NCBI GenBank assembly: GCA_964016885.1
Contig: OZ024742.1
Coordinates: forward strand, 117,862,001 to 117,926,000
Source of the DNA: Eledone cirrhosa
Lineage: Eukaryota
Reading direction: 5' to 3'
DNA: 64,000 nucleotides
Shown here: piece after piece, positions 2,073-64,000 of the stretch
Layout of the letters: each line of letters begins with the position of its first letter
Position numbering within the stretch: position 1 is the first letter of the stretch
Notes under the pieces: generated by a model
Database searches by the model: none
The model's input: the letters and a program-made list of their open reading frames with translations, nothing else
Told to the model about the DNA's origin: nothing
Program-made: the position numbers and the translations under genes

Positions 2073-3238
2073 ACGAAAACAAATAAAACCACACCAACAA
2101 AATGTTAAAAATTTCGTGCTTGTCAGAAGGGCTAACGATAAACTGATGGCCCTCTTAGCACGAAGCGAGGACATTCAAACAGAGGGGGAGACTTTTGAAA
2201 TGAGCACATTTTGCGTGCCAGAAGATTTGCTACTGGTCCGAATGCCACTCAATTCCTTCAAAGAAATTCGAGAGAGCTTTCCCCAAGACGTGAGAACCCC
2301 GAATGTGAAACCCACATCGAGACTTTTAAAGGGGTTCCCAAAAGAAACCCCACCAACCATGGAGGTCGAACCACCCGACCTTCACAAGACCCCGAGAGGT
2401 AAGTAAACCTTCCCTCTCTCTCTTAGCTTACCAACATGGCCATATTAAGAGTAGGAAGTTTAAATGTTCGCGGCCTGGTGTCACCCTGGAAGCAGGGTCG
2501 CCTGCTCAACGACCTCAGGTCGCTGGAAATGGATGTGATTGCCATCAGCGAGACCAGAATTTCCGACACGCGCGCACTAGCCCCCATTTTCGACGACGAT
2601 CAGATCTTCGTATCTGTTAGCAGGCCGGGAATGGGGGTGAGGTGGCAGTGCTGTTTAGGAAAGGACTGGATCTCGAGGTAAGGTCGATCTTCCGGGACCC
2701 GGATGGTAAGTTGGTGGTCTTGGATGTGAGCAGTAGCGAAATGGTGCCTTTTGACTGCTGGCCGTCTACGCCCCTACAGGGGCCGGACGACCGGACTTCT
2801 TTAGGCGCCTGGAGACCTTTCTGGGTACGTCTCGCCCTTTACTGTTAGCGGGGCACTGGAATGGCATCTTAGACGCACGCTGGGATTGTGTGGGAGTAGC
2901 CGATAGGAGCGGGGGGTGCAAAAGCCTCAAGCACCTACTCAGCCAGTTCCAACTGTCTGACAGGTATCGACTAGATTTCCCCAATGTGCCAGTATGGACA
3001 TGGACCAACCGAATGGGGTCATCTAGATCGTATATAGACAGGATCTTCATTAGGAAAATAGATAGAAATAGATTGGGCTGCCCACTTTTTAAAACGGTCG
3101 CCTATTCAGATCACAAATTTGTGATCTGTACGGTCGACATAGATAAAACGCGTAGGTTAGGACCGGGTTACTGGAAGCTGAACATGTCATTTCCGGCACG
3201 TAAGGCTTACAGGGACCGAGTCAACAATTTAGTTAAGC
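2073..3238 (+). mobile_element. Inverted 5' segment of the same Tx1-like element: ORF1 end plus APE endonuclease start (ATG 2436)
   Basis: GSLNVRGL, ISETR, SRSYIDRIF and YSDH APE motifs with frameshifts; ends at tttagttaagc (3228-3238), the same point at which the minus-strand part begins (2062-2072). Confidence 0.9.
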
Positions 3239-3239
3239 A

Positions 3240-3289
<50 letters not shown>

Positions 3290-3290
<1 letters not shown>

Positions 3291-4482
3291 CAGTAGGAAT
3301 GCCATAAGTGCAGTAAATTCCCGAGCTGTGTCTATTATTAGGTACAGTACGGGAATTCTGAGATGGAATGCTGCTGAACAAAAAGAAATGGATAGGAAGA
3401 CTAGGAAGCTATTGACTATCTACAACATGTTCCACAAGAGGAGTGATGTCGATAGACTCTACTTAAGGAGATCTGAAGGTGGAAGAGGTCTTATCAGCAT
3501 AGAGGACTGTGTTCAGATGGAGAAAAACAACCTACACAAATACGTGACTGATAGTAAGGAGCCAATGCTCAGAATTGTACTGAAGGAGGGGACAATAGGC
3601 CAGGGGATGTCCAAGGAGGAAATAACATCAAGGAGAAAGAGCAGCCTTCAGGAAAAATACCTTCATAGTACCTTCTTTGAGAAAACTGAATTTAGAGACC
3701 CACAGACATGGAACTGGTTGAAAAGAGGAGACCTTAAAAAGGCTACAGAAGGAATGTTAATGACTGCGCAGGAGCAGACCCTCAAAACGAAGTGGTTGAA
3801 ACACCATATTTACAAGGAGGAGGCTAGCCCACTGTGCAGGATCTGTGGAGAGTGAGAGGAGACTGAGGCTCACATTGAATCCGAGTGTAAACACCTAGCC
3901 CAGACTCACTATAAAGGCTGGAGACATGATGTGATGGGCAGGGTGATCCACTGGCACCTATGCAAAGTAAACAATTTACCACATTCTGAGAAGTGGTATG
4001 AGCATAAGCCAGAGGCGGTGATAGAAAACGATCAAGTGAAGGTGCTGTGGGATTTTAGGATACAGACGGACAAGAAACTGGAACACAATAGACCTGACCT
4101 GGTGGTTGTGGACAAAGAAAAAAGATCGTGCCTGATTGTGGATGTGGCCTGCCCATTCGACACGAAAGTGCAAGAGAAGGAGAAGGAGAAAATTAACCGA
4201 TACCAGGACTTAAAGTGGGAGGTAAAAAGGATTTGGAACTGCCATGAAGTCAAAGTGATCCCGATTGTCATAGGCGCACTAGGGACTATCTCAAAAAGTT
4301 TCCAGGGATGGTTAAAGAAAATTGGCCCCTTCACGCTTTTTGGAACGCTTCAAAAGGCATGCTTGCTGGGAACAGCAAGAACCCTCCGATACGTCCTAAA
4401 TATCTGAGGCTGCAGGTAGTGGCTTGATATTCATTTCAACAAACTTTCCAGTTAACTAACATCAATGACTGAGACTCAAAGA

Positions 4483-4603: not shown

Positions 4604-5660
4604 GTGCATTGAGCCAATCCCACTCTCTGAGCGACAGTAGCTATAACCCGAAAAGAAGAAAAGATTAACATCATCGGTAACTACTGAGCCGCAGGTTTTA
4701 TGTTGGAGTTAACTCAGTTTCCTGAGATGCCTAGAAGAATGCCCTGACAAGGGCTAGGGGTTCTTCACTCCCAGTGGTTTAATTGCGCGATCGGGCATTC
4801 GGCCCGATTATTTCTATGCCCCCGCGCAAAAAAAGAAAAAAAAAAAACCCTCACTTATTGACACTTAAACCTACGACATACACACACGCGCACACACGCA
4901 CATACATACGCGCGCACACAGCAACACTCATACATACAAACAAACACACACACGCTACTCACACACACACATATATATATTACCGTCATTACTGATACAA
5001 GATTACAAGATTATGTCAACTGTTGACTTTCAAGAGTTCGTATAGTTGAAGCCGTTCGTATTACAGTTCAGTATTATTATAATTGCTTTACAGCATAGAG
5101 CTATGGCTCTCCACGCTCTGAGCTCAAATCCCGCCGAGGCCAACCTTGCCTTTCATCCCCACGGAGTCAACAAAAGAGAGTACCAGTAATGTGCTGAGTC
5201 AGTCATTGGTGATGGTGATGGCGGTGGTGGTGGTGGCAGTTGATGTTGTTGTTGTGTTGTGTGCGTGTGTGTGTGTGTTTTATTATTTTGCGGGGTTTTT
5301 TTTTCTTTTTTTTCTTTTTTTATCGTTTGATGCCGCTGTTGTTGTAAATGTTCATTTCAATTCATTCTGAAGCTGTTGTTGCTGTAAACATTAGTGCCGG
5401 TGTTGTTGTTGTAGATGTTGGGGTTGAAGTCTAGTCGTTTGACTGAGTGATGTATATACACACATATACATACATATATATATATACACACACACATTCA
5501 ACACAGAGTAGAGAGTTTGACAACAGGTCGGTGACTTTAGGCTAGATAGAGTAATGACATGTGTAAATGTAAATGTGATGGTGGCGCGAGAGTGTAGACG
5601 TTATTGTGGTGGTGGGGGGCAGTGAGATGTATCTAGTTCATTTGTCCGTTTTCTTCTCTT
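4604..5660. repeat. ~1.05 kb composite interspersed repeat, copy 1
   Basis: Collinear with 42016-43070 over its whole length; contains an RTE 5'UTR-like motif (minus), CA tracts and a Meta-type SINE fragment (~5090-5197). Confidence 0.85.
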
Positions 5661-5671
5661 TATACATACAT

Positions 5672-6085
5672 GGTGGCTACCAACTCGTTTTCGAGTACGG
5701 CCACTACTTTATCTCCATGTAGGAGAACCCCCACCGATGCGCTGAACGAGTGTGACCTTTTAATCCAGCCAGCGACTTGAAAACTCTGGTACAAACACTA
5801 CACTTGTGACAATTATTGACACATAGTGCTGGGCCCATGGTACCATGTGACGACAAGTGCAGAGAGATCACCAGATATAAAGCAATGCCTGTGCCATGAA
5901 GCTTTTATAGTGAGCAAAGGCACTGCACAAAGCCAGTCCCACTCTCTTAACCAAGATGATATTTACCAAAAAGAAGAACAAGTCAACATCATTGGATACC
6001 ATCAGAGTTGCAGGTATTATATCAGAGTTTTCCTTCTCCTAGAATTCTGCCTTGACAAAGGCTAAGGGGTCATCTCTCCCGGTGA
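5672..6085 (-). mobile_element. 5'-truncated copy of a ~605 bp non-coding RTE-derived retroposon with (ATGT)n tail
   Basis: Near-identical to 6107-6520; flanked by the direct repeat tttatacatacat (5659-5671, 6086-6098). Confidence 0.8.
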
Positions 6086-6106
6086 TTTATACATACATAC
6101 ATACAT

Positions 6107-6710
6107 GGTGGCTGCCAACTCGTTTTCGAGTACGGCCACTACTTTATATCCATGTAGGAGAACCCCTATCGATGCGCTGAACGAGTGTGACTTTTTAGTC
6201 CAGCTAGCGACTTGAAAACTCTGGTACAAACACCTCATTTGTGACAATTATTGACATATAGTGCTGGGCCCATGGTACCATGTGACAAGTGCAGAGAGAT
6301 CTCCAGATATAAAGCAATGTCTGTGCCGTGAAGCTTTTATAGTGAGCAAAGGCACTGCACAAAGCCAGTCCCACTCTCTTAACCAAGATGATATATACCA
6401 AAAAGAAGAACAAGTCAACATCATTGGATAGCATCAGAGTTGCAGGTGTTATATCAGAGTTTTCCTTCTCCTAGAATTCTGCCTTGACAAAGGCTAAGGG
6501 GTCATCTCTCCAGGTGATTTTGGATGGCCATTGACTCTTAAGAGCTCGTTTGCCCTTTGACAGGTTTTGTTTTTAGTCCTGCAGGATGTCCAAAGTCACC
6601 CTCCTCACCAAGAAACCTTGGTGGGGTTGCCAGTTTAGTCGCCAACGACCCGACCATGAGACAGGTTGTACTGGGATACATGTTACCAGTAGCACCAACT
6701 GGTGACCTGA
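6107..6710 (-). mobile_element. Full-length ~605 bp non-coding RTE-derived retroposon flanked by (ACAT)n
   Basis: Same ends as the copy at 40463-41070; minus strand has the RTE 5'UTR-like motif GGCAGAATTCTAGGAGAAGGAAAACTCTG and a 3' hairpin ACTCGAAAACGAGT before the ATGT tail. Confidence 0.8.
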
Positions 6711-6758: not shown

Positions 6759-9700
6759 GACAGTCAACGCGATCATTCGCATATTTTGGCGTGGGAGACT
6801 ATTTATTAAATTTAAGATTAATACTATCTCCGACAGTAATGCCACAACTACAGCCAGGTTGAATAACTGGCTATTCTTCTAACTATACCTTCTGAAGACA
6901 CCTTTTATTCGAATTCGTAGAGATATCTGACTAAATACATAATTCATTTTACAAGAATTTGCTACAAACAGCATGGCTGAACACAACATCAACAAAAAAA
7001 AAAAAATTAAGGTAGTACCGAAGACAAATAACAAGGAAGGTAATCAAACTTTATTCAGTTGTAGCTACAGAAGAAACCGAAATTATAAATCGCATTTCTC
7101 TTGGAGTTGCGAACTTAATAATGATTTATTTAATTGTTATAAAATGGCAAAAAAACAATCCCTCCATTGGCTATATGAATAGAATGAAGCTACACTGGGA
7201 CGAAATGCACCCAGAGCTAAATTATTTCACAGCGAAACAATTACGCCAACAAGCAACGTTTGTTGAACGTAAAAATAAGATAAATATTATTAATTGTAAG
7301 TTCCCCACAACAAACATGGAATCAACAACACGTGCTACAGATAGCCATGCTACTAGACTTCCTAGCAGCCAGGTCGAACAGCGTCTTGAAACAACTCTGC
7401 CTGTAAGAAACTTGATACCACCTGTACCATCTAAGTCTACCTCGAATGCTGAGGAAAACACTATCGATAATAATAATAATCGAAGAAATTTGACACCACG
7501 TGTACCATCCGAGTCTACCTCGACTGTTGTGGAAAATACTATCGATAATGATAATCAAAAGTATAAACAATTGAAAATTTCCCTCAACGAAATCTTCCAG
7601 AGAGAAATTAACTCATGTATACATATCTCTCTTGCTGAACGTATTAAAACAACAATGTTTAATAAAAAAACCAAATAATGAAATATTACGTGTTATTGAC
7701 GAACATTTTGGCAAATCAACGCCTGTTTATATGCCCTAGCAACGACAGTGAAGCATTATCTTGGTGATAGCAGAGATATTAACAAGAACAGAACACCACC
7801 AAAAATACCATCATATATAACTAAAATAGAAAAAAAGATTGCTGACCTACGAAAAAACATAGGATAGGTGACAATGCTCCTTACATGCAAACAAACACAA
7901 AAAAACCTCACTCCTCACCAACAAAGAGTGAAAAATAAAATAGAGACCGTGTTTGGTAACAGTAGAACCAGAACTCTCCAATATAAGTTGATCACCCTCA
8001 AACAAGAATTGAGAGCTGTTAGCGAAAAACGCCGATACCTGAAGAAGGTAGATGAGAGAAAAGTGCTTAATAAAAGATTCAGACGAAACCAAACATCAGT
8101 CTATAGAGATATGAAGGGCAAAATAATAAGTGTCACTGAGGCGCCATCCCAGAAAGACATAGATTCTTTTTGGAGCAAAATATGGGGTGAAAAGAAGAGT
8201 TTCAACCAAGATGAAGTGTGGCTAAGAGAAATCCGAAAGAACTATTGCTCCTACACTACAACAAAAACATAGGAAATAAGTGAGACTGTGATAGGAAAAC
8301 TCCAAGATAAGAAAACACCAGGAAGAGACATGATTATCGGCTACTGGTACAAAAAACTGATATTCTATCGGAGGTATCTTACTGAACTCTACCAACAAGT
8401 TCTTAAGGGAGATACACTTATACCAGAATGGTTGACATTAACACAAACATTACTGGTCCCCAAGAACAAAGATACCCACTTGGCAAAAAACTACCGACCC
8501 ATTGCATGCCAGAACCTGATGTATAAGATGTATACAGCCTGCCTGAACCTATTCCTCCAAGATCACTGTGAAAATAATAACATCATCACAGATGAACAAG
8601 CAGCTGGAAAGAAAGGGGTTTGGCGATGTGCTGAACAACTCCTAATCAACAAAACTGCGATGTCGGAGGTGCGACAACTTAGGAGGAATATGACTACAGT
8701 CTGGCTGGACTACAGGAAACCTTTCGATTCTGTTCTGTTCCCCACTCTTGGATGATAGAGGCCCTCAAACTTGCTAAAGTCCCAGACATTATTGTCAGAG
8801 CCATAGAGAGGCTGTCTTATTCTTGGGCTACTATCCTAAGGTTAAAAACAGAGAAGGAGGACTCTATTTTCACTGATAAAATAAAATATTGCAGGGAGAC
8901 AGTCTCTCTGTGATATTATTCATCTTGTCATTAAGCCCCTTGTCTTTTCTGCTCAACAAATGTGAGGGATACATCATTGGCTCACAGGAGGACAGAAATA
9001 TGAACCTAACCCATAATTTCTTTGTGGACGATCTGAAACTCTATGCCAAGAACATGGATGGGATGAAGAAAAATCTTGACCTGGTTACAACGTTCTCAAA
9101 GGATATAGGAATGGAGATTGGCCAAGACAAATGCTCATACATGACTGTAAAGCGGGGAAAAACAACAATCCAATCTAGCAACATCGTCATCAATGGCCTA
9201 ACTGTTTCACCGATATCTGATGAGGACTGCTACAGATACCTGGGGATAGATGAGAACATATCCTATAATGGTATCTGTAATAAAGAACGCGCAACCAGGG
9301 AATACTACACCCGATTAAGAAAGATCTGGTCATCGGAACTCTCTGCGCAAAACAAACAGTGGCTCACAATGTGTTTGCTGTGCCTGTCCTAACACCAACG
9401 TTTGGAATACTCAATTGGACGATAGACGAAATCCGAGCAGTTGATGTTGGAAGTCGAAAAATACTGAACAACACCGGAAACTTCATGCCTATCAGTAAAA
9501 AAGCATGCATGGATATGTTGCCAGGAAGCTCCAGAGTGAGAGTAATATAGATAAGGAAAGTAGTCTATCTTGGACCAACAACCGCTATATTGGCTCCCAC
9601 TATGAAGAATACGCTTTTGCACTCCAGGAACAGGAGATTAACACGAAATACCTGATTCACAAAAGAGATAGGGATGCAGGCAAAACACCTAGATGTGATA

Positions 9701-10496
9701 ACAAGTGCAGAACTAACATCGAGGATATCACTCATGTCATCAGCAGCTGTCAAAAGATGTCATCGCGGTAATATCTACTTATGAGGCATCATGTAGTGGC
9801 CAAAACACTGTACAATGCAGTTCGTAAAAAAGATAGCCCCGATAATAAACACGTTAATAGCTTCAACAATGTGGAAGACATCCATGTACATAATATGAAA
9901 GAGTACTGGTGGAATGTTCCAGTAAAAACCCCAATAAAATGCAGGCATAACAGACCAGATATTATGATATGGGACAGGGAGAAGAAAGCATGCACAGTAG
10001 TGGAAATTAGCTGCCCAGCAGATGCCAATATAATATCAAAGACTAGCGAAAAGGAGAATATTTATGCACAACTGATGAGAAATCTGCAGATAATCCACCC
10101 TGATTACACCTTCAGATTTATGCCTGTGATTATTGGGGCACTGGGATATGTTAGTAACTGCCTCAATACAAATCTTGAGAAGCTAGGCTTCACAGGAACA
10201 GAAAGAACACAACTAGTTAGGAAATTACAAGTACAATCCATTAATGGAAGAGTAAAAATATGTAAAACATTCCAAAAATTGTGCATCTAATAACTGCATA
10301 TACACATGTACACATGCACACATACAACTCAAAACATCCACATCCACACATACAATAACATCTATATCTACACATGCATGCATACATATGTACCTAGTTG
10401 ATGTTGTGTAAATTCCAATGAGAGAGTCTTGTGTCTATGTTAGAAACCGACTCTCTCTCTATTGGTAAAACTTTGTGAAATTATAAAACCAGAAGA
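6759..10496 (+). mobile_element. Near full-length, disrupted R4/Dong-like RLE retrotransposon in (ACAT)n
   Basis: N-terminal W..E.N..L..CY/GYMNRM..HW domain, NYRPIACQN, WLDYRKPFDSV, QGDSLS, FFVDD, RHH and NRPD...VEISCP; stops and frameshifts; (ACAT)n at 6711-6758 and acatacat at the 3' end. Confidence 0.92.
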
Positions 10497-11077: not shown

Positions 11078-11270
11078 GGGGCAGTAGATTGGCAGTATCG
11101 GTAAAGGGTCGGACGCCATGCTTTGAAGCATAGAGTTACCTCCCTTTATGATCTGAGTTCAATTCCCACCGAGGTTAACTTTGCCTTTCATCATTACGGG
11201 GTCGATAAAATAAAGTACCAGTAATACACTGGGATAATTGCTGGCCTTGTGCCTGAAGTAGAAAGAATTA
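11078..11270 (+). mobile_element. tRNA-derived SINE with Meta-type central domain
   Basis: B box-like GAGTTCAAATTCC, body CCGAGGTTAACTTTGCCTTTCATC...GTCGATAAAATAAAGTACCAG; ttatttatttat on both sides; many copies in the window. Confidence 0.9.
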
Positions 11271-11445
11271 TTTATTTATGTGAGCGGGGGCGTCGTTCAG
11301 GGATGTTTTCTACACTAATGAGCTTTAAATAACATGCACTTTACAAATATAACACCAATCTATGTATATTTATATACATTATATACCTTTGGGAGAAATA
11401 TACAAACATACATAAATACCGTGAATATTTACAATACCCACCCCC

Positions 11446-11548: not shown

Positions 11549-11655
11549 TAGAAAAAGAGTCAGGACCCCGGCGGCTGAGCTCCGGCCGTTTCTATTGCTA
11601 GATCCTAACTATGGTGCGTTATGGTCCATCTGGTATTTTACCACACCCTCTTTGT
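11549..11655. mobile_element. Short rearranged PLE-type terminal-repeat fragment (family shared with 33290-33492 and 45289-45400)
   Basis: Shares GAAACGGCCGGAGCTCAGCCG (minus) and tggtgcgttatggtcca..tggtat.ttaccaca (plus) with 33290-33492; flanked by microsatellites. Confidence 0.6.
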
Positions 11656-11755
11656 TATATATATATATATATATATATATATAAGTTGAAAAAAATGAAA
11701 ACGAAAAACGAAATTTCATTTCTCACTCTTAGTATGGCACTTACTTAAATGTAAG

Positions 11756-11802
<47 letters not shown>

Positions 11803-12018
11803 GCTACTGTACGTCTGTATACATATATGTATGTACGTATACATACATACTTACATTTAAGTAAGTGCCATACTAAGAGTGAGAAATGAAATTTCGTTTT
11901 TCGTTTTCATTTTTTTCAACTTATTGTTTTCAGTATGCCTGACCGATTTAACTCACTCAATATGCAAATTAGGCTGCTCAGCCGTTAATTTTCATAAGGA
12001 AAGTATATACTTTCGAAC

Positions 12019-12105
12019 GTTCAACTATCTGGCAGATGGGTAAACGGTGCTGATGATAGCTAACAAGCTTGAAACTAGTACATCGTTCCTGTGCCAGTGT
12101 TGAAC
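12019..12105 (+). ncRNA. Type I hammerhead ribozyme, unit 1
   Basis: Stem I AACGGUG/CAUCGUU, core CUGAUGA 12050-12056, stem II AGCU/AGCU, GAAA 12071-12074, palindromic minimal stem III ACUAGU, site GUA (12080); distal helices CUGGCA/UGCCAG and GUUCAAC/GUUGAAC. Confidence 0.85.
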
Positions 12106-12486
12106 AAAAAGGTGACGTGGTTGCCTTAACACCGTATGGCATAAATTCAGGCTGTTCAGTTTGTTGACAAACGAACAAAGCAAGCGCTATAATAAGCGTC
12201 TGCTAAACTGATGCGTGCATATATGTATGTGTACCTGCATGTATGTATATATATATATGTATATATACATGCTACTGTACGTCTGTATACATATATGTAT
12301 GTACGTATACATACATACTTACATTTAAGTAAGTGCCATACTAAGAGTGAGAAATGAAATTTCGTTTTTCGTTTTCATTTTTTTCAACTTATCGTTTTCG
12401 GTATGCCTGACCGATTTAACTCACTCAATATGCAAATTAGGCTGCTCAGCCGTTAATTTTCATAAGGAAAGTATATACTTTCGAAC

Positions 12487-12573
12487 GTTCAACTATCTGG
12501 CAGATGGGTAAACGGTGCTGATGATAGCTAACAAGCTTGAAACTAGTACATCGTTCCTGTGTCAGTGTTGAAC
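12487..12573 (+). ncRNA. Type I hammerhead ribozyme, unit 2
   Basis: Same motif 468 nt downstream (CUGAUGA 12518-12524, GUA at 12548); one C>U change turns a G-C into a G-U pair. Confidence 0.85.
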
Positions 12574-12788
12574 AAAAAGGTGACGTGGTTGCCTTAACAC
12601 CGTATGGCATAAATTCAGGCTGTTCAGTTTGTTGACAAACGAACAAAGGAAGCGCTATAATAAGCGTCTGCTAAACTGATGCGTGCATATATGTATGTGT
12701 ACCTGCATGTATGTATATATATATATATATATACATGCTACTGTACGTCTGTATACATATATGTATGTACGTATACATACATACTTAC

Positions 12789-12852
<64 letters not shown>

Positions 12853-12888
12853 AAATAAAGATCCGAAGGCATGGTATAAATTTCCAAT

Positions 12889-12973
12889 CATTTTAATCAC
12901 GACACATGTTTCAATAAGATAGATCGATCGTGCAGCCATGATCGATTATCACTGATCTCGTCAGGTGAAAATG
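12889..12973 (-). ncRNA. Type I hammerhead ribozyme with long stem II, in a (TA)n-flanked element (12851-13165)
   Basis: Minus strand reads CAUUUUCAC-CUGACGA-[hairpin including AUCGAUC/GAUCGAU]-GAAAC-AUGU-GUC-GUGAUUAAAAUG. Confidence 0.75.
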
Positions 12974-13162
12974 AATTGTCTTCAAATCCTTGATATGAGG
13001 GAGAAATTAACGATGTTCACTCACAGAGTTTAGTCCCTCATACTCCGTTTTACATTATCTAGCTGTTCCCATAAATGGAATTGTAGATATACAAAAGCGT
13101 GGAGAACTTAATATTGCTAACAAAAATTTATTGGACCGTTTGACACAACCAATAATACACCT

Positions 13163-13194
<32 letters not shown>

Positions 13195-13198
<4 letters not shown>

Positions 13199-13914
13199 AA
13201 TGGCGAGCTGTGCTGCTGTAAATATGATATATATAATAAAGAATTAGAAATAGAAATAGAAGCCAGGACTATCCATCAAAGACAGGTCACAGCGAAGGGG
13301 AAAGCATATATGAATGAAAAATGGCGAGCTGTGTTGTTGCAAATGTGATATCTATATATATAAAAACAAGTCGGTCTGTGTGTGTGTGTCTGTCTGTATA
13401 CAAATACTAGGCTCCTTTTAACTTTTGAAGTACTAGGCCGATTTGCTTCAAGGAATGATATTTCTATGTCCAGTGGATGGTCAACGTGGTAGTGGCAACG
13501 CCATCTTACGCATAGGTTTTAGTCTACTGAAGGACATACGGTGCGTCTATTCCATCTTTATCCCCTTACTCATACCTACTACAGCAAGACCGGACCTGAA
13601 ATCATTCACGTCAATTAACTCAAGCTACCCCATGAATTGTTTTTATGTTGCCGTTTATTTCACTCAATCATGTCACTGTACACCCATTTTGTTAAACTTT
13701 TTTTTACAATTACATTTTAATTCTTTGCTCAGCCTTTGGCTCTCTTTATACGGACAAACAGGCTGTCATTCATTTCCCGAGCAACGCCGGGTACATCTGC
13801 TAGTATATTATAAAGAATTGGAAATGGGGGCCTGCACTCTCCATCATCAGTGGTCTACTAGCCATCATAGAGACCACTGATGATGGATAGTCCTGGCTTC
13901 TATTTCTAAATCTT

Positions 13915-13918
<4 letters not shown>
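13195..13918. repeat. (TA)n-flanked element with ~120 bp direct repeat and terminal inverted copy, interrupted by a Helitron
   Basis: gaaaaatggcgagctgtg at 13195 and 13315; 13880-13918 is inverted relative to ~13232-13278; hairpin ccatcatcagtggtc/gaccactgatgatgg. Confidence 0.65.
13351..13803 (+). mobile_element. Non-autonomous Helitron
   Basis: A|TC start, subterminal hairpin CCCGAGCAACGCCGGG, CTAG|T end, no TSD; removing it restores the flanking repeat unit; degenerate Pif1-like ...FYVA remnant. Confidence 0.85.
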
Positions 13919-13963
<45 letters not shown>

Positions 13964-13964
13964 T

Positions 13965-14587
13965 AAAAACATGAGAAGAAAGAAGAATACTGCGTCGTTT
14001 GCACATGGGTTACATATGATAAAAATAGTCCTTCGTCAGTGATTTTCCAACCATCATTGGTATTTCATCGCATTAAAAATCAGATACCTCAGGTTGGTGC
14101 GAGCAATAATCTAAAAAAAGTTATTGGGACCAGTAATCGCGTAAAGCGAGGGGGAAAGTGAACAACGTAGAAGGATAAAAACAAACCAAAGAAAGGAAAT
14201 AAACAAGCAACATGGTAGTCCTGGTCAGCATAAGCTCGGTGGATTTCATGAGCGAAAGGAACAGACGTCCGACGTGAGTGAGATGTAAGCAAGAAGAGGC
14301 CCACTGTTAGCCAAACGAGAGGAAGTGAGAAGGGGAGAAACAGAGAGTGAGTGAGTGGAAGTGCGAGGAAGTGGTCAGTCGAGAGAAAGTGTAACTGACA
14401 GAGGGGGCGAAAGAAGGTGAGAGAAACAGAGAGAGCGGGGAAGCAGTAAGAGAGAAACAGACAAACGCAGCCGAGGTAAATATATATAAAAAACATGAGA
14501 AGAAAGAAGATTACTGCGTGGTTTGCACATGGGTTACATATGATAAAAATAGTCCTTCGTCAGTGATTTTCCAACCATCATTGGTAT
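13965..14587 (-). repeat. Element with 99-bp terminal direct repeats (period 524 bp) in (TA)n
   Basis: 13965-14063 and 14489-14587 are near-identical; each has CTGACGA on the minus strand. Confidence 0.7.
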
Positions 14588-14924
14588 ATATATATTTATA
14601 TATATATATATATATACCGTATATAACATAGAATTGCATGTAAAATATGTTTAGATATTAATTTTCAAAATTATGAAAGAAACAAATGCACCCTCCGTTA
14701 AAGAATATGAATGCGCAAGGTTTTGTCTTGTTTTTATAGAGATTGGATTATACGCTTCGAAATCGATACTGATGCATTGCTGGAACATACTTTGTCGGTC
14801 TGGGAGAAACAAAAGGGGAAATAGATCCCAACTTATAAGGTAATTGGATGTTAATTAATACAGGAAGACTGCTAGTGAAACAATCTACTCTTTCTGATAT
14901 TCGTTCATGTAATTACGTATTAAT

Positions 14925-15117
14925 ATAATTGTTTCTACTTTGGACACAAGGCCAGCAATTATCCCAGTGCATTACTGATACTTTATTTTATCGACCCCGT
15001 AAGGATGAAAGGCAAAGTTAACCTCGGCGGGATTTGAACTCAGACCGTAAAGGGACGTAACTCTATACCGGAAAACATGCTGTCCGACCATCTACCGATA
15101 CTGCCAGCCCACCGTCC
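14925..15117 (-). mobile_element. Meta-type tRNA-derived SINE
   Basis: Reverse complement of the 11078-11270 family. Confidence 0.9.
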
Positions 15118-24749: not shown

Positions 24750-25239
24750 ATCTGGTGTTTAGGAGCTGATGGTTTTGCTGGTGATCTAGCGTATTTCGGT
24801 TAAACATGTTCCTATATTTATAGCCAGCAAATCTAGCTGTCGTCTGTTCTACAGTGTGGATGTAATTCACTTCGCGCAGAAGTTTTGTTCAAATTTATTG
24901 CGGAAATTTTGTGAGTTCAAATTTAATTTTGATACTATTGTGTAGCTTGACCCCCCGTCTGAACTGTCAGACGGTGGGTCAGCCCATCTTTACCCCTCCT
25001 AGAGGTGAAAAACCTGTTTTTTTAAATTTTGTGGCAAAAAAAAAAAAATTTTTCAATCGTCTGACAGAAATGTTAAACGAAGCGAACGAAAACAGTGGTG
25101 GGGGACAGCGGTAAGAGTTGTAAGCTCGCACGCTTTAGTCCCCCCTTCCTTCCCAACTAACGTCATAGAGAAGGAAGGAAAAAACAAAATAAAAACAGAC
25201 GAATCTGCGGAGAAAAATGACGAAAACACAAATCTGGAC

Positions 25240-26963
25240 ATGGATTCCAACAACGAAAAAAAAAAATTTGAAAAATTGCATGACAATATTAATACCACAA
25301 ACAAAGACATAACAAACACAAAAATAACATTTGAAAACAACATAACAGAAAGCAAAGCAGACGACAGAGTCAACAAGATTTCATTTGCACAAAAAACAAA
25401 GAAATCTTTGACATATATACCCGAAAATATTTCAGATGTGGCACGAAGAATCACAGACGCCAAACAATACATAAGTGAAGGAGAGAATGGTATTTTATCG
25501 GTTAAAATGCCTCAAGAACTCACCAAAGACATTGAAAGTCGAACGGTCGTGTTCCGCACCATTAACAACACTTCAAAAAAACCTGAACAGCCAACTCAGG
25601 CAGATATCAAAACAGTACTCACAGAAGTACTTAATGAAACCACTTTCATAAGAAAAGACAGACTGTATGGAAGCCTAGCAATTATCATGAAGAACGAATC
25701 GGCGGCAAAAAAATGTGCTTTGTCACCGATTCGTTCGAAAATTTTTACCTTTTATCCATCTTATATGGGTAAAAGAACTCAACGCATATGGCTGGATGCA
25801 ATGATGCCAGATGTGGACTACTGCTGGCTCATAGCTGGCTTCATCGATCCAGTGAATGACAACGTGATTTCCATTGGGAAAACCACAGGCAATGCGTTCA
25901 GTGGAACAGGTATAGAGCTGGTAGTGCAAATGAAGCCTGAACGCATCGCCCAAATACCCGACAGAATCCTATTAGAGGGCCACGGGTATATAAACATTAG
26001 CGTGGAGGGGAGAAGGCCATCCTGTCATATCTGTGCAGGCAGAGGGCACCTGAAGGCCGCTTGTCCCCAACACAACAAAATGAAAACCCTGCTACCAACA
26101 CCAGCTCCACCACCACAACAGATAAACAAACAACAAAACTCAGTCCCACCCAACCCGTCCCTCAGTAAAACTACACCACCACCACAACACAAACAGTCAC
26201 AACACATTACCCCAAAACAAAATACAGGCCCACCCAACCCCTCACTCAATAAAACAACACAACCACCGCAGACACAACACACAACACAGTCTAACATAGT
26301 GACATCCATCTCCCCCACAAAGAAAACCAACACGGAAACATTACCAGCAAACATACCTCTTCCCTCCAACACTGAAGATAACCCAACGAATTCGGAGGAA
26401 GAAACGGAGTCCTTCAGACAGATTAAAAGGAAAAAAAGAAAACATATGCAAAACACACACGGCCAAACAACCCCCACCCAAATGTCAACACAATCCAACA
26501 AAACAGAAAACACCTCTCCAGCAACAAACAAAACCAAACCTGCCCCTCCCCTCTTCGAAACACTCACACCATCCGAAAAAAGACATTACACTATACTTAC
26601 ATCAACAGAAACAATAATAAATTAAATGAACTCATATATAATAATCCTTTGGTACAAACCGAAGGTGTAAACTTTGTTTCTTCAGAAAACTACCCACATT
26701 TAAAATTAATAAAGATCCCAATGAACCTCTACCAAAAACTAAAAAAGGATTTTAAGGAGGACGTAGGACCACCCTCTGTCAAACCCATAAACCGCGTCCT
26801 ACTAAAAAGTTTTCCCCCTCCCCTTCCCCTCCTCAACACAACTCCAAACACCCCAACCCCACCACACACTGACGACCCCACACCACCACAAGACACCCCT
26901 TCACCCAACACCCCCGACCCCATGGAAGTCGTGCGACCCGAACCCCGGGAAGCGGAAAGGTAG
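25240..26963 (+). pseudogene. Tx1-like ORF1 (gag-like, CCHC knuckle), interrupted near 26625
   Basis: 461-aa ORF with CHICAGRGHLKAAC (CX2CX4HX4C) and a P/T/Q-rich tail; the 26649-26963 part resembles the ORF1 end at 2116-2406. Confidence 0.85.
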
Positions 26964-26996
26964 GTCTCTACACTTTCCTTTGGCTCTGCCGCCCAC

Positions 26997-29785
26997 ATGG
27001 ATGTGTTAAGAGTAGGATGTTTGAATGCACGTGGCCTGGGCTCGACTTGGAAGCAAGCAAAGCTTCTAAATGACCTCAGGTCATGTGGTATAAATGTAAT
27101 GGTTATCTGTGAGACTCGGATCAGCGTCGTGCGGCAACTGGCCCCTACCTTCGATGACTTTGAGGTGCATGCATCTCTCTGTCAACCTGGAGGTGGGGGT
27201 GGGGTTGTCGTACTGCTGCAAAAACACATGGGTCTTGCCGTACAGGTTGTGCACTCGGACCCGGGGGGTCGTTTGTTGGTGCTAGACGTTGGCAGTAGTG
27301 AAGGTGCGGCCTTAAGACTGGTCGCCGTCTACTCCCCTTTCGGAGCTGAACAGCCCGACTTCTTCCAGCGTTTAGAGACTTTTCTGGGAACGTCGCGTTC
27401 CCTGCTTCTAGCGGGGGATTGGAATGACATCCTAGATGCACGTTTGGACTATGCAGGAGCATGTCCTAATAGAGGGGGGTGTAACAGCCTCAAGGGGTTA
27501 CTCGACCGTTTTAACTTAGTCGATAGATATCGACTAGATTTTCCAACTGTGCCAACCTGGACTTGGAGAAACCACAGTGGTCAATCTAGATCGTACTTAG
27601 ATAGATTCTTAGTTATAAGTAAGGATAGGGACATATTAAGCTGTCCAGAAATGCGCACGGTTGGCTACACGGATCACAAATTAGTGACCTGCGTAGTCAA
27701 TCTCGAGAAAACACATAAACAGGGTCCCGGTTACTGGAAACTTAATTTGTCTTTACCGGCAAAAGAGACTTACAGAAACCGGATTAGCAGATTAGTTAAG
27801 GAGAGGTTGACGGGTGCAATCGTCAACAACCGATGGTGGGCATCTCTCAAAAGAGAGATTAAAACAGAATCAATAAGTTATAGCAAGATGTTAGCTGCCG
27901 ATAGGAATAGAAACGAGAAAGAATTAACAGGTAAATTAGAAGAGGCAATCAAGAGCGAAGATGTGGCCAGAGTGCTGGCATCGAGGACGGCCTGAACCAG
28001 TTTTTCGATGCAAAGCACGAAGGCTGCGTCATTCGAAGTAAAATACGTGCTCTAGGTAATGAGGGGGCAAAAGCCGTTGGCTGGGCCCGCGTGACAGAAG
28101 CTAAGAGTGGAAATCGATCCACCATCCGGTCGTTGCAAGACGAAGATGGACGGGTGATCCGGGAGCCTAAGCAGATGTGCGAGGCCTTTCAAAGGCACTT
28201 TGCCCGATTGTTCGGGAGAGGCGAGGGTCCGGGCGGGGACGTGGATTTCGGTCCATACCTCGACGGCCTGCCGCGTCTCTCGAGCGAAGAGGCAGAGTCC
28301 TGCGAGACCAATCTCGGCTGATGAGATCGGAGATGCGCTGAGCCAATGCAGCAGACGCAAATCTCCAGGTCTCGATGGTATACCTTACGAACTTTATTTA
28401 GCAATGCCGGTCTTCTTCTCCGAACTCCTCGAAGCGGTCTACTGCAATTGGCAGCAGAACGGGAGAATTCCTTGTTCTGTAGCCAAGGGCGTAGTCACGC
28501 TGGTGAGGAAGGATGAGAACAAGGGAGATAGTATAAATAATTTTCGGCCCATAACACTGCTAAACACAGAGTTAAAGATTTTGGCCAAGGTGTTAGCAAA
28601 GAGGTTGGCGCTTGTCGTGGGTAGCCTGGTGGGAGATGCGCAGACATGTGCTATCCCATCCAGGTCCATTCACGATAACCTCCACCTCATGCGATACATC
28701 ATAGAGAGGGTTGGCAACAAACCCGGCTTCGGTGGGGCCCTGATCAACTTGGATCAGTCTAAGGCCTTCGATAGGGTCGACCATGGTTACCTGGATGCGG
28801 TGCTAACGGCGGCTGGGTTCGGTCCTGTTTTCAGAGCCTGGATCACTGCCTTACATAGCAACCACATCTGTTCTAGGATCAAGGTGAACGGCTACCTTTC
28901 GAAGCCGTTCGAAATCACACGATCCATTCGACAGGGGTGCCCTCTCTCCTCCCTTCTGTACGTATTGACTCTCGAGCCTTTACTGAGGAAGTTGGAGTTG
29001 TTGCAGGGTATCCCCCTGGAACCAGGATTGAGCAAAGCGGTGTCGGCCTACGCTGATGACGTAACAGTAGTGGTATCGTAACAGTAGTGGTACCGATCGA
29101 GGCGATCGGTACCTTACTGGAGGATTACGAAAGGTTGTCAGGAGCGAAACTGAACCGGGAAAAATCCATCGGGCTGCAACTCGGAACGTGGAGAAGCAGA
29201 CCGATGCCTCCCGACGGTGTCGTCGGACACTGGACGGAGGGCCCGGTAAAGTTGCTTGGGGTCTGGTTTGGACCGGACCTCCAGGTGGAAAAGAACTGGA
29301 ACGAGGTTACGAACAAGGTGTTTGCACTAACCCAGAAATGGGCCAAGTGTAAGCTGCCCCTAAAAGGCCGGGCGGAGGTGGCGAACATTTACATAGCGTC
29401 CGTCACTTACTACCGCCTGACTGTCGTGCCTTGCCCTAAGGAAACACTCACCACCATGGAACGCATGCTCTTCCAATTTCTTTGGAAGAAGCGCCCTCCT
29501 ATGGTGAGAAGATCCATCTGCTGCCAACAACCTTCGAAAGGAGGGCTGGGGATGCCGTGGTTGATGATGCGTAGGCACGCATTAAGGCTACGGCACCTAC
29601 AGGTATTCCTCACTGGTCAACCGGTGTGGGCTCCGTTCGTGAAACGAGCCTTTCCGAAACTCGTCTCGCTCACCGAGCTACAGTCCTGGGTCAAGCAAAG
29701 ATCCGGAAAACTGGGAGACTGGCACACTGAGTGTGCTCAGGCGCTCAGGGCTCTCTGGCAAGCGGGCCAGGCCATCGGTGGAGAA
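26997..29785 (+). pseudogene. Tx1-like ORF2 (APE endonuclease plus RT), frameshifted
   Basis: GCLNARGL, LAGDWND, YLDRF, TDH; SPGLDG, FRPITLLN, DQSKAFDRV, RQGCPLS, YADD. Confidence 0.95.
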
Positions 29786-30400
29786 TCTGGAACTAGGGTC
29801 TTGCTAAGGGGAGTAGAAGATCTTTTCCTTAAAGCCACTGTTGGCTTAGGTGTTATTATAGTTGGCTAAGGTGTTATTGGGGGCTACTCTATCAAATATA
29901 CTCTTATTTGAAGAAAGGCTTGAGATTCTCTTATTTATGGTGTTACTAGATTCCCGAAAATTATAGACGCGTCACCTTGACTTCTGCTGTATCTAAGTTT
30001 CTCACTGGCTTTGGGACAAGGCTCACGTGTATGTGAGTTTGGGTCGAAGATGATATTTAGGAAACTGACACCAGTGAGGTTGTTGGCTACGGTAATATTT
30101 TACAGGCTATTGAAGATGGTTTAAGAAGTTTCATAAAAGTATCCAAGTCATGGCCGCTTTTACGTCTTGTTAGGACCAGACTATCGTCACAATATAGACC
30201 AATACTAACACCTGGGAATTTACTTTTTTGTGCCTAAAATATATAACCCCATCAAATTTCAGACATTGGTGCTGTCGAATGAATCCATTGATGCATTAAA
30301 CATTCCGCGGCATCCGACGTTTTTAATCAGGTTGATTCGCTATTGAAGAAGAGGTTTTTTTCTTGAATGAAAGACTATTTTGTGTAGAAATATGTTCCTT
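29786..30400 (-). mobile_element. Degenerate Penelope-like element RT fragment
   Basis: Minus strand gives FNASMDSFDST (cf. FDV.MGS.DGA), IGLYCDDSL (cf. GLYRDDGL) and KRISSLSSNKSIF. Confidence 0.75.
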
Positions 30401-32593: not shown

Positions 32594-32707
<114 letters not shown>

Positions 32708-32761
32708 AAATGGCGTAGGATAGAAGAAAGGAAAGGCACAGAAACGAAGAAAGAAATCCCC

Positions 32762-32806
32762 AGTCACTGAAGAGGTCACAGAGTGTGTGACGAAAGAACT
32801 ATGACT
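32762..32806 (+). ncRNA. Minimal type I hammerhead ribozyme in a (TA)n-flanked insert
   Basis: AGUCA-CUGAAGA-G-GUCACA(GAGUG)UGUGAC-GAAA-GAAC-UA-UGACU: 5-bp stem I, 6-bp stem II, site CUA. Confidence 0.75.
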
Positions 32807-32957
32807 ATATATATATAAACAACTATCTGGTTGTGGAACCAACCAACCAACCAGAAATTTATAAATTTGTAAATTTATAAATATATAATAAATTAAATTG
32901 AAGTGAAAGCAACTGGTGCGTGTGTTTCTTATTGGCAACATGACCCTCCCAAAGTAT

Positions 32958-33069
<112 letters not shown>

Positions 33070-33208
33070 CGATAGTCGATCGACAAGATCCCAGACCTCA
33101 TTCGCTTAACTAGTGGGGTGGAGCTCATCAAATCGGACCGAGGAAACCTTGTTTCCTTTGGTCTTCCCAATTGATAATACTATCTGTCGGTCGCAACTCC
33201 AGGCAAAA

Positions 33209-33279
<71 letters not shown>

Positions 33280-33289
33280 GTGTGTATAT

Positions 33290-33490
33290 ATAGGAAAAAA
33301 GTCAAGATCCCAACGGCGAAGCTCCGGCCGTTTCGACAGCTAGATCCGAACCGTTCGGATCTAGCTGTCGAAACGGCCGGAGCTCAACCGTCGGGGTTCT
33401 GACTCTTTCCCTATTGCCCACTCTACTACCCTAAGTATCGAGGACGCTGGTGCGTTATGGTCCACCTGGTATCTTACCACAACTTCTTTG

Positions 33491-33492
<2 letters not shown>
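33290..33492. mobile_element. Fold-back PLE-type terminal repeat
   Basis: Perfect 32-bp arms 33320-33351 / 33353-33384, imperfect out to 33290-33414; each arm carries a hammerhead 3' half GAAACGG...CCGUY. Confidence 0.7.
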
Positions 33493-34043: not shown

Positions 34044-34120
34044 ATAATAATAATAATAATGATTTATTTATTTGATTATTTTTATTTATAATAATAATAA
34101 TTATTATTATTATTATTATT

Positions 34121-35903
34121 CTGCATCGCACTTATACCATTAAGTAAAATGCTCAATGAAACAAAACATGGATATAAAATCTATGACAAAACCATTAATC
34201 ACTTGTTCTACATGGATGACCTGAAACTATTTGCAAAAAATGATGAACAATTGCAAGGGCTATTATCCACTGTGGAGCAGTTCAGTGATGACATTAAAAT
34301 GGAGTTTGGACTAGATAAATGCGCCAAAGCAACGTTCACCAGAGGAAAGCTGCTGAAGAGTTCAGACATTAATTTTGATCGGGGGAACGTGATAAGAGAA
34401 CTTGATCAAGAAAAAACTTACAAATATCTAGGTGTTTGTGAAGGAGACGGAATCAAGCACTCGACAATGAGGGAAAGGATAAGGAAGGAATGTTACCGCA
34501 GAGTAAGAGCAATCTTAAGAACGGAATTGAATGCAAGGAATAGGATCGATGCCATAAACACGCTTGCCATACCAGTAGTAACCTACAGTTACAATGTCAT
34601 CAACTGGTCAAGCACAGAGATCCGTAGGCTCTATACAAAAATTCGAAAATTCTTAACTATGCACAGAATGCATCACCCTAAGGCAGATATAGATTGAATA
34701 TATCTCCCTAGGAAAGAAGGAGGACGTGGGTTAGTCCAGTTAGACATTGCGTTGAAAACTGCAACAATTGGATTATCTACATATCTAAGGGAATCACATG
34801 ATTGGATGATCAAACTCGTTTTGAAACACGAAAGCATCAAAAGATCATATTCCATTACAAAAGATGCACAAAGATACAGTAATGGACTACAAATTTCAGA
34901 AGTCCCATTTACTGCTGAAATGGAAAACACAGAAAAAGCAAAGCAGGTAAAAGTAACTGCAAAGAAAGAACTGCTCCAGAAACTGGCTAAGAAATGGCAA
35001 GAAAAGCCTCTGTATGGAAAATACCCAGAGCGAGCTAACAATCCTGATGTTGACAAAACTTTAACCCATCAGTGGTTGGCATCCTCTGGACTGAAATCGG
35101 AGACTGAAGGACTGATTATATCAGCACAAGATCAGTGTCTGCCAACAAAAAATTACCAAGCCAACATAATAAAAAATGGATGCAGCCCATTATGCCGTGT
35201 ATGCAAAAAACAACCAGAGACCATTGACCATATAATTTCAATGTGCAGTCCTATAGCTCCAACCGAATACCTAAACAGGCATGACAGAGCTGCACAATAC
35301 ATACATTGGATAATGTGTAAGCATTTTGACCTGCCCCATCAAAAGAATTGGTGGGAGCATCAACCACCTCCCATACTTGAAAAAGATCACATCTCAATCT
35401 TGTGGAACTTTAGCATCCAAACAGACCGAAAAATAGATGCAAATAGACCTGATATAATATTGAAGGACTTTCAAAAGAAGGTATGCCTGCTAATTGATAT
35501 GTCTGTTCCAATAGACAAGAATGTATCTATAAAAACATTTGAAAAATTGAGCAAGTATAAGGACCTGGAGATAAAAATTGGAAAAATGTGGAAATTGAGA
35601 ACTAAAACAATACCAGTGGTTGTAGGCGCTCTGGGAATGATACCTAAGGGGTCTAATGATTACTTATCGCAAATCCCAGGAAACCCGCGTATAGGAGAAA
35701 TACAAAAGATAGTACTAATGGGAACTGCCCATATACTAAGGAAGATTCTGTCAATATAAGTACATCACAAGTCTAAACACTAAAGATGCATGTGTGAGTA
35801 TGTATGTTCTTTCTTGAACATGGCGGACCTTGTTGTCTCTTGAGGTCACTGGTTGTGACTTCGTGATAACTCGTATGAACATAAAGCAAGATAAATGCAA
35901 CTG
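34121..35903 (+). mobile_element. 5'-truncated R4/Dong-like RLE retrotransposon with (TAA)n tail
   Basis: HLFYMDDLK, YKYLG, GGRGL, CRVC...ETIDHIISMC, RHD and NRPD...IDMSVP; only one stop (34695); taataa tail at 35904. Confidence 0.93.
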
Positions 35904-62179: not shown

Positions 62180-64000
62180 TTGGAGAAAAATATGGAGTGA
62201 AAAGAAGAATTTCAACCAAGATGCAGTGTGGCTAAGAGAAATCCGAAAGAACTACTGCTCCTACACTACAACAAAAAACATACGAAATAAGTGAGGGTAC
62301 CCTTGAGACTGTGATAGGAAAACTCCAAGACAAGAAAACACCAGGAAGAGACATGATTATTGGCTACTGGTACAAAAAACTGATATTCTATCGGAGGTAT
62401 CTTACTGACCTCTACCAACAAGTTCTTATATCAGAATGGTTGACATTAGCACAAACATTACTGGTCCCCAAGAACAAAGACACCCACTTGGCAAAAAACT
62501 ACCGACCCATTGCATGCCAGAACCTGATGTATAAGATGTATACAGCCTGCCTGAACCTATTCCTCCAAGATCACTGTGAAAATAATAACATCATCACAGA
62601 TGAACAAGTAAGGGAAAGAAAGGGGTTTAGGTATGTGCTAAACAACTCCTAATCAACAAAACTGCGATGTCGGAGGTGCGACAACTTAGGAGGAATATGA
62701 CTGGCTGGACTACAGGAAAGCTTTCGATTCTGTTCCCCACTCTTGGATGATAGAGGCCCTCCAATTTGCTAAAGACCCAGACATTAATGTCAGAGCCATA
62801 GAGAGGCTGTCTTCTTCTTGGGCTACTATCCTAAGGTTAAAGACAGAGAGGGAGGCCTCTATTTTCACTGATAAAATAAAAATGTTGCAGGGGTATATTT
62901 CAGGGGGACAGTCTCTCTGTGATATTATTCATATTGTCATTAAACCCCTTGTCCTTTCTGCTCAAAAAATGTGAGGGATACATCATTGGCTCACAGGAGG
63001 ACAGAAATACGAACCTAACCCATAATTTCTTTGTGGACGATCTGAAACTCTATGCCAAGAACATGGATGGGATGAAGAAAAATCTTGACCTGGTTACAAC
63101 GTTCTCAAAGGATATAGGAATGGAGTTTGGCCAAGATAAATGCTCATACATGACTGTAAAGCGGGGAAAAACAACAACCCAATCTAGCAACATTGTTATC
63201 AAAGGCCTAACTGTTTCACCGATATCTGATGAGGACTGCTACGGATATCTGGGGATAGATGAGAACATATCCTATCATGGTACCTGTAATAAAGAATGCG
63301 TAACCAGTGAATACTACACCCGATTAAGAAAGATCTGGTCATTGGAACTCTCTGCGCAGAACAAAACAGTGGCTCACAATGTGTTTGCTGTGCCTGCCCT
63401 AACACCAACGTTTGGAATACTCAGTTGGACGATAGACGAAATCTGAGCAGTTGATGTTGGAACTCGAAAAATACTGAACAACACCGGAAACTTCCACATC
63501 AACAGTAACATAAACCGCCTTTACTTGAAACGTAAGCAGGGAGGCAGAGGCCTAACATCAGTCCAGACAACATTTGAATGTCGCATCATATCTCTCCGAC
63601 AACATCTACGAACCTCGAAGCGTAGGAGCCCGTTTCTCGAGCAAGTCTATCTGCATGAAACAGATAAGATCATGAGAGTTGGGAAGGAACTCCTCGAGAG
63701 ATATTCCCTGTGTGATAATCAAAAACTCATACCCAGGGATGTCGCTTAGCAGTATCGCAGTGAATCCATGGATGAAAAACTGCATGCCTATCAGCAAAAG
63801 ATCATGCCATGGATATATTGCCAGAAAGCTCCAGAGTGAGAGTAATATAGATAAGGAAAGTAGTCTATCTTGGACCAACAACCGCTATATTGGCTCCCAC
63901 TTTGAAGGATACGCTTTTGCAATCCAAGAACAGGAAATTAACACGAAATACCTGATTCACAAAAGAGATAGGGATGCAGGCAAAACACCTAGATGTGATA
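62180..64000 (+). mobile_element. 5'-truncated second copy of the (ACAT)n-associated R4/Dong-like element
   Basis: Near-identical to 8170-9700; starts immediately after (ACAT)n 62117-62179; runs off the window end. Confidence 0.93.

Follow-up and report, generated by a model that had tools for sequence, protein, structure and literature searches.

The Penelope-like elements (PLEs) Naiad and Neptune insert preferentially into (TA)n and leave partial-tandem pseudo-long terminal repeats (pseudo-LTRs), an inverted 5'-truncated copy and an optional tail (Craig et al. 2021, PMC8557442). In that study, Naiads are described as being without canonical hammerhead ribozymes, eight of them are flagged "half core", and cephalopod Naiads are called old remnants. 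The pseudo-LTRs of PLEs can carry minimal or dimer type I hammerheads, with a short palindromic stem III, a bulged base starting stem II and dual motifs on opposite strands (Cervera and de la Pena 2014, PMC4209133), and PLE hammerheads often cleave poorly on their own (PMC4209133, PMC11167929). For one PLE studied in vitro, reverse transcription starts internally at two sites and both strands are cut at AT-rich DNA (PMC11167929). Metazoan non-LTR retrozymes are non-coding tandem units of a few hundred nucleotides (nt) with one hammerhead each, proposed to be non-autonomous PLE derivatives (Cervera and de la Pena 2020, PMC7229834; Li, Clavereau and Pollet 2026, 10.64898/2026.07.22.740005). Type-SGC hammerheads, that is HRIMA-1 and its variants, cleave in vitro and come from metatranscriptomes, with none located in the genome of a known organism (Eckert et al. 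2023, PMC10085705). Here we compare with these systems a chain of repeats strung along a TA microsatellite in a 64-kb window, the whole stretch of DNA analysed, of the 3.0-Gb assembly of the animal Eledone cirrhosa (Table 1). We are fairly confident that the chain consists of separate insertions of multicopy mobile repeats, most of which were likely written by PLEs, and that the families of its segments 4 and 5 carry a predicted, rewired hammerhead that likely comes from Naiad PLEs.

The initial annotation of the window had described the chain as five unrelated small non-coding elements along one (TA)n tract, most of them with hammerhead motifs, and had overlooked the non-circular permutation of the segment 4/5 hammerhead. 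Segment 5 holds all hammerhead core letters in the type-SGC order of cleavage strand, GAAA and CUGAYGA. We searched the genome for each of the segment families (F1 to F5), scoring 40 candidates and retrieving 30 loci per family, the window's own copy included. A scan of all block orders across these loci and the window gave 58 matches to the order cleavage strand-GAAA-CUGAnGA, and only weak chance matches to other orders in the retrieved loci. Genome-wide, the spacing pattern of this order was found 23,800 times, as against 222 in a reversed control, and one pattern scan of metagenome contigs gave no match. Existing tools do not recover the motif: no ribozyme was among the 100 Rfam matches listed at E<=1, and a descriptor scan of the window returned complete type I motifs for segments 2 and 3, isolated CUGAYGA boxes for segments 4 and 5, and nothing for segment 1.

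The helices around this core were examined in an alignment of 30 rows, made up of 19 representatives of 21 clusters at 90% identity (the window's copy replacing one, two omitted) and 11 rows added by hand. The bases after CUGAYGA are not paired to those before GAAA, the first such pair forming in 17 rows. Both the strand before GAAA and the linker leading into stem I have their partner in a strand upstream of the cleavage strand; here 88.3% of positions are paired and 19 of 25 pairs change on both sides. An unguided column scan of the same rows yielded helix P, in which the bases after the core pair with a strand further upstream, and hairpin Q. Helix Xb is 92% paired and has two-sided changes in five of its six pairs, and the linker between stems I and II reads TAA in every row, although the search pattern had required TAA for part of them. 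Tandem GA letters (G in 30/30 rows, A in 30/30, A in 29/30 and G in 26/30) stand in a kink-turn-like arrangement. When the seven-helix model was tested on the 26 rows with an intact upstream part (four rows dropped), 94.2% of 858 cells were paired and 20 of 33 pairs showed two-sided changes, compared with 30-44% pairing in slid controls; none of 500 shuffles reached the score, a control that related sequences can exceed even without structure. Covariation thus supports the helices of F4 and F5, and from the model we infer the three-dimensional fold and cleavage: the upstream strand would supply stem II, helix P and hairpin Q would close a four-way junction, and the kink-turn-like bend would fold an extended stem III back.

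Such a hammerhead should work like the type-SGC ribozymes (PMC10085705), with which it shares the block order, a 3-nt linker between stems I and II and a helix tying these two stems, and yet it departs from them in one defining feature. In type-SGC the 5' strand of stem II directly follows CUGAnGA, whereas in F4/F5 the chain exits the core after CUGAYGA into helix P, and the covarying partner lies upstream of the cleavage strand. Both stem II and the tying helix are drawn from the strand 5' of the cleavage strand, and a hairpin and a kink-turn-like loop are added. Unlike the published type-SGC motifs, this one occurs in ~24,000 places in the genome of an animal. Read by eye, the 3' ends of both Naiad_Obim and Naiad_Ovul, as given in the supplement of PMC8557442, repeat this order and the GA pairs, form every helix from other letters and share the loop sequence of Q; the authors of that study flagged Naiad_Ovul as "HHR_half_core". 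In contrast to cephalopod Naiads, the old remnants of that study, F5 copies are 95-97% identical, and F4 and F5 are non-coding, with units of 520-570 nt. Searches of the available literature gave no description of the F4/F5 fold. A distant subfamily with the same order and the same stems I and III, written in different letters, occurs at L132:174-264, L257:1467-1557 and L281 (near 2001-2043); its stem III is closer to the published Naiad tails. On balance we lean towards the view that Naiads and their non-coding hitchhikers use an active hammerhead of a wiring not described before, with type-SGC order, a stem II that would be opened at the core into a four-way junction, and a kink-turn as brace.

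The chain itself is of a known kind, the TA preference of Naiad and Neptune PLEs and of retrozymes being an established phenomenon. As the initial annotation had it, the five segments are separated by pure (TA)n (11656-11683, 12792-12850, 13166-13194 and 13918-13960, with TA at ~14588-14616 closing the chain), except that the left flank of segment 1 is (TG)n. The tandem and inverted geometry was also borne out, with a 107-nt arm and 2.2 units in segment 2, head-to-head arms in segment 4 and a 99-nt direct repeat in segment 5, whose copies lie 524 nt apart with a short internal TA run at the unit junction. The elements are neither five nor all unrelated. Members of the segment-4 family match the segment-5 unit at 75-78% identity (142 and 122 nt, E 1e-15 to 1e-18), the only pair of segments that BLAST linked, and a sixth element sits inside segment 4. 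Helitrons begin with TC, end in CTAG behind a subterminal hairpin and insert between A and T without target duplication. This 453-nt insert shares all of these features, and by them we take it to be a non-autonomous Helitron-like element; its family copies are 97-98% identical. Complete hammerhead motifs are found in three of the five segments (2, 3 and 5); segment 4 retains two CUGAUGA half-cores (13850 on the minus strand, 13877 on the plus strand) with neither cleavage strand nor GAAA, and segment 1 has no hammerhead.

All five segments belong to dispersed multicopy families in the genome (4948, 2033, 1938, 1768 and 2906 first-look candidates for segments 1-5, respectively, which are not copy numbers). 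F2, F3 and F5 are non-coding, with units of a few hundred nt, a partial-tandem and inverted 5'-truncated layout, fixed 3' ends and an optional tail. F2 is a young family, its best matches being 99% identical, and its hammerhead motif has identical letters in 59 of 88 copies; in F3 the core and flanks are identical in 27 of 36. These two motifs, and that at 32762-32806, match the PLE pseudo-LTR hammerheads of PMC4209133, from which F2 and F3 differ in having no open reading frame (ORF) in the loci examined, and F2 also in a U-U mismatch at the base of stem II. Metazoan non-LTR retrozymes fit F2 directly and F5 by layout, although they carry type I hammerheads where F4 and F5 are permuted, and the copies here add PLE-type inverted arms and TA targeting. 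Segment 1 has its GAAA in a hairpin loop. Over 131 nt, the F1 tail shares 82% identity with the final part of the 3' untranslated region (3' UTR) behind an ORF at L167. Judging from this similarity, F1 is derived from the final ~130 nt of a coding PLE-like element. We rejected segment 1 as a hammerhead, since CUGAnGA precedes GAAA in none of the 22 longer F1 copies listed.

The families show a common insertion signature. At the termini their 3' ends are fixed and give way to TA in 28 of 30 cases for F5, 10/10 and 8/9 for F2, 17/20 and 18/18 for F3, 16/23 and 17/20 for F1, and 6/6 for F4, whose other end reaches TA after ~10 nt in 13/13. Each family has two 3' end sites, resembling the PLE "tail" (PMC8557442, PMC11167929), its 5' ends are variable, and partial tandems are the rule. 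TA preference, partial tandems, an inverted truncated copy and an optional tail are thus common to these families and to Naiad and Neptune PLEs (PMC8557442). A short TA-like run lies right at the fixed 3' end in F2, F4 and F5, and 5' junctions without element-encoded TA mostly adjoin TA as well. Unlike those of the PLE of PMC11167929, the starts here coincide with TA-like RNA sequence, and pairing with the target is therefore possible.

We estimated how common such arrangements are from 100 evenly spaced 10-kb stretches (1 Mb). Chains of at least four inter-(TA)n segments were present in 34 of these stretches; the chain in the window is thus ordinary and, as such, no more than chance. Hammerhead descriptors matched 51 times (47 type I, 4 permuted) and not once in reversed sequence, and 33 of the 51 matches fell inside inter-(TA)n segments, which make up 22% of non-tract bases. 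Because matches were clustered, one match per stretch was also tested: 19 of 23 lay no further than 300 nt from a tract, compared with 33% for random positions (p 1e-6). Homologues in at least three other stretches were found for 193 of 286 inter-TA segments, compared with 94 of 286 among the matched controls. The space between TA tracts is thus enriched in both hammerheads and multicopy families, as the initial annotation had expected. The hammerhead counts are lower bounds, as the strict descriptor misses bulged variants such as F2. At least eight more type I hammerhead families were seen in these stretches (L155-L246), many as inverted pairs near TA tracts, and 47 type I matches per Mb would scale to more than 100,000 genome-wide.

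A similar chain had been claimed at 32702-33492 of the window. It is real, but what look like its first two "segments" form a single piece, a coding PLE's 3' tail, 91% identical over 267 nt to the tail behind a 631-amino-acid frame at another locus (L286, G000:C1:13317541-13325582) that has a reverse transcriptase (RT) plus, at its C-terminus, a GIY-YIG domain, both as Pfam matches below the curated cut-off; a 12-nt TA at 32806-32817 is internal to this tail. L286 is itself another TA chain. It lines up a near-intact PLE ORF with its tail, one F1-like copy, a Tc1/mariner-like transposon that has terminal inverted repeats, one copy of F2 and one of the permuted hammerhead. A further PLE-like family (L167:2293-5070, L237 and L313:7890-9626) has RT-like and GIY-YIG-like motifs, and its 3' UTR showed no CUGAnGA; the nearest Atlas clusters of the L167 ORF are eukaryotic, with HTH_animal on 30-38% of their members. 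The proposal that (TA)n is a landing pad for a diverse community of ribozyme-bearing, PLE-derived parasites therefore holds in part. The tract is a preferred site for several PLE-derived families, some with hammerheads, but not all occupants are unrelated or ribozyme-bearing, and the Helitron-like insert in segment 4 and the Tc1-like transposon at L286 are not PLE-derived. The repeated duplication and expansion of the tract proposed along with it might equally be the simple splitting of one tract.

These features suggest how such chains may form. A PLE GIY-YIG endonuclease would nick (TA)n, in line with its known preference, and reverse transcription would start inside the RNA, at one or two fixed sites beside the short TA-like run. 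Starts would often occur from both strands and give the head-to-head arms, while the 5' ends, which we find variably truncated, would be joined at AT microhomology, as seen at the junctions. Templates longer than one unit are evident in the copies and would point to uncut multimers or circles. Each insertion would leave on both sides TA that stays a target, for the Helitron-like element included.

Whether the permuted motif cuts might be read from the 5' ends of genomic copies. Ten junctions in the retrieved loci, checked by hand, start within a few bases of the predicted cut. Genome-wide, 5229 anchored copies fell into a truncation-enriched class (1058) and a complementary class (4171); by hand tally of the first 100 listed of each, 71 and 2 copies, respectively, end within 24 nt, while at two control anchors 6-7 and 7-8 of 100 copies end within 31 nt. 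Most ends in the core lie at AT microhomology, and any excess at the predicted cut is weak at best. The complementary class and the control anchors show that ends are denser across the whole core, and we therefore rejected a pile-up at the cut as support. At one locus (L300, ~5400-5850) an F4 copy starts at the predicted cut and ~330 nt later jumps to the predicted cut of a second copy, a single case that resembles what template switching at the end of a cut RNA would produce.

Several observations weigh against the reading we prefer. On the side of cleavage, only ~16% of the 5229 anchored copies end across the 24 nt of the core and ~84% read through the predicted cut; by hand tally, the 5' ends of 100 listed truncation-enriched copies fall at offsets 1-11 in 52 and at 16-20 in 14, with the cut at 16/17. 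The canonical 10.1-11.1 pair forms in only 17 of the 30 rows, single-strand folds of the hammerhead motifs are no better than shuffles (z -0.2 to -1.3), and the selection pattern had required the core letters and stems I and III, though not P, Q, the substitute stem II, Xb or the GA letters. In the one PLE tested in vitro, hammerhead cleavage was dispensable for insertion (PMC11167929). On the side of origin, the Naiad link rests on the by-eye reading of the supplement, no coding Naiad ORF lay near the permuted motif in 20 larger loci, no coding partner with a matching tail for F2 or F3 was present in the retrieved loci, and the L167/L313 ORF behind the F1-like tail had no Pfam match. In a less likely reading, the F4/F5 fold derives from a hammerhead and is conserved but has stopped cutting, and it persists as a signal to the Naiad protein for binding or reverse transcription. 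The unconserved stem II pair beside the core, the read-through without pile-up and the poor cleavage of many PLE hammerheads alone would all suit such a signal, as would 5' ends that are ~2-3x denser over the core than in two control stretches, a difference that a structure by itself could produce. Such a loss of cutting sits less well with the full set of catalytic letters and correct stems I and III, kept in ~24,000 places and in distant Naiad tails, or with the in vitro cleavage of type-SGC ribozymes of the same block order (PMC10085705). Circles or uncut multimers would be expected to give read-through too; most templates passed the site in the way that these would, so that the 5' ends neither support nor exclude activity.

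As for the tracts, the active insertion into TA that we favour could be mistaken if internal TA runs of elements inserted anywhere had seeded and expanded into microsatellites, making the tracts by-products and the chains partly self-made. We regard this as improbable. The TA-like runs at the fixed 3' ends of F2, F4 and F5 and the TA within the PLE tail of the second chain are what it would predict, whereas TA also adjoins most 5' junctions that encode none, unrelated families and DNA transposons gather in the same tracts, and a (TA)n preference of Naiads is reported (PMC8557442). Copying of the chain as one composite element, or by segmental duplication, is largely refuted and very unlikely: an F1 copy does occur in both chains of the window and some neighbours recur elsewhere (F2 beside a permuted-family copy at L286), but each of the five families has different neighbours in 145 other loci, segment order differs between chains, and the differing identities within families (~88-99%) indicate different ages, which counts against a single unit.

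Table 1. Positions of the features of the two TA chains in the window.
Feature	Position	Strand	Description
Segment 1 (F1)	11549..11655	+	internally deleted copy of a ~200-nt palindrome-plus-tail family; no hammerhead core
Segment 2 (F2), inverted arm	11681..11787	-	second 3' end pointing outward; 107 nt, 94%
Segment 2 (F2), tandem part	11800..12792	+	2.2 units of 468 nt; non-coding, retrozyme-like
F2 type I hammerhead motif	12043..12087	+	dimer type; stem I of 7 bp, short palindromic stem III; cut predicted after 12080
F2 type I hammerhead motif, second copy	12511..12555	+	from descriptor scan
Segment 3 (F3)	12851..13165	-	short rearranged copy (3' end and inverted tail) of a longer non-coding family
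F3 type I hammerhead motif	12897..12968	-	long stem II, palindromic stem III; predicted cut after 12901
Segment 4 (F4)	13195..13918	.	head-to-head deleted remnants; family related to segment 5
Helitron-like insert	13351..13803	+	453 nt; 5' TC; 3' hairpin 13776-13791 and CTAG
Segment 5 (F5)	13965..14587	-	one 524-nt non-coding unit and a 5'-truncated partial unit of 99 nt; 3' end fixed, in (TA)n
Predicted permuted hammerhead domain of segment 5	14028..14130	-	103 nt; every helix of the model present
Helix P	14130-14127 with 14031-14028	-	permuted domain
Hairpin Q	14126-14104	-	permuted domain
Substitute stem II	14102-14099 with 14071-14068	-	permuted domain
Helix Xb	14097-14092 with 14052-14047	-	permuted domain; kink-turn-like GA pairs also in domain
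Stem III	14088-14084 with 14063-14059	-	permuted domain
Predicted cut	between 14083 and 14082	-	permuted domain
Stem I	14082-14076 with 14046-14040	-	permuted domain
Core boxes	GAAA 14066-14063; CUGACGA 14039-14033	-	permuted domain
Second chain, 3' tail of coding PLE	32702..32962	+	type I hammerhead motif 32762-32806
Second chain, multicopy segment	33066..33208	-	degenerate hammerhead-like core; 8 matches in 1 Mb
Second chain, full-length F1 copy	33290..33492	+	125-nt palindrome and tail

The surroundings of the chain are also rich in repeats. An abundant repeat, presumably a short interspersed nuclear element (SINE)-like one, lies on both sides of it (11090-11280 and 14950-15110), and its motif occurs three times in the window. 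This motif and the resemblance of the element tails to octopus Naiads would point to a cephalopod host. Frames for RT, endonuclease or gag-like proteins were seen in fragments of several non-LTR retrotransposons at 2755-4407, 7016-10290, 25009-29869, 34101-35759 and 62880-63446, and another tandem repeat, with two 432-nt units and 95% matches, at 5662-6520.

Non-circularly permuted hammerheads were previously known only from environmental sequence, and the motif of segment 5 is abundant in an animal genome. It breaks the assumption that stem II obligatorily follows CUGAnGA. Neither Rfam nor standard descriptors detect it, so that counts of such ribozymes in animal genomes may be too low. At 103 nt the domain would suit a simple test of cleavage in vitro, and the motif offers a direct test of why Naiads seem to lack the hammerhead kept by other PLEs. 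If the predicted ribozyme is indeed active, it would explain why Naiads were reported without hammerheads and would represent the first family of non-circularly permuted ribozymes in the genome of an animal.

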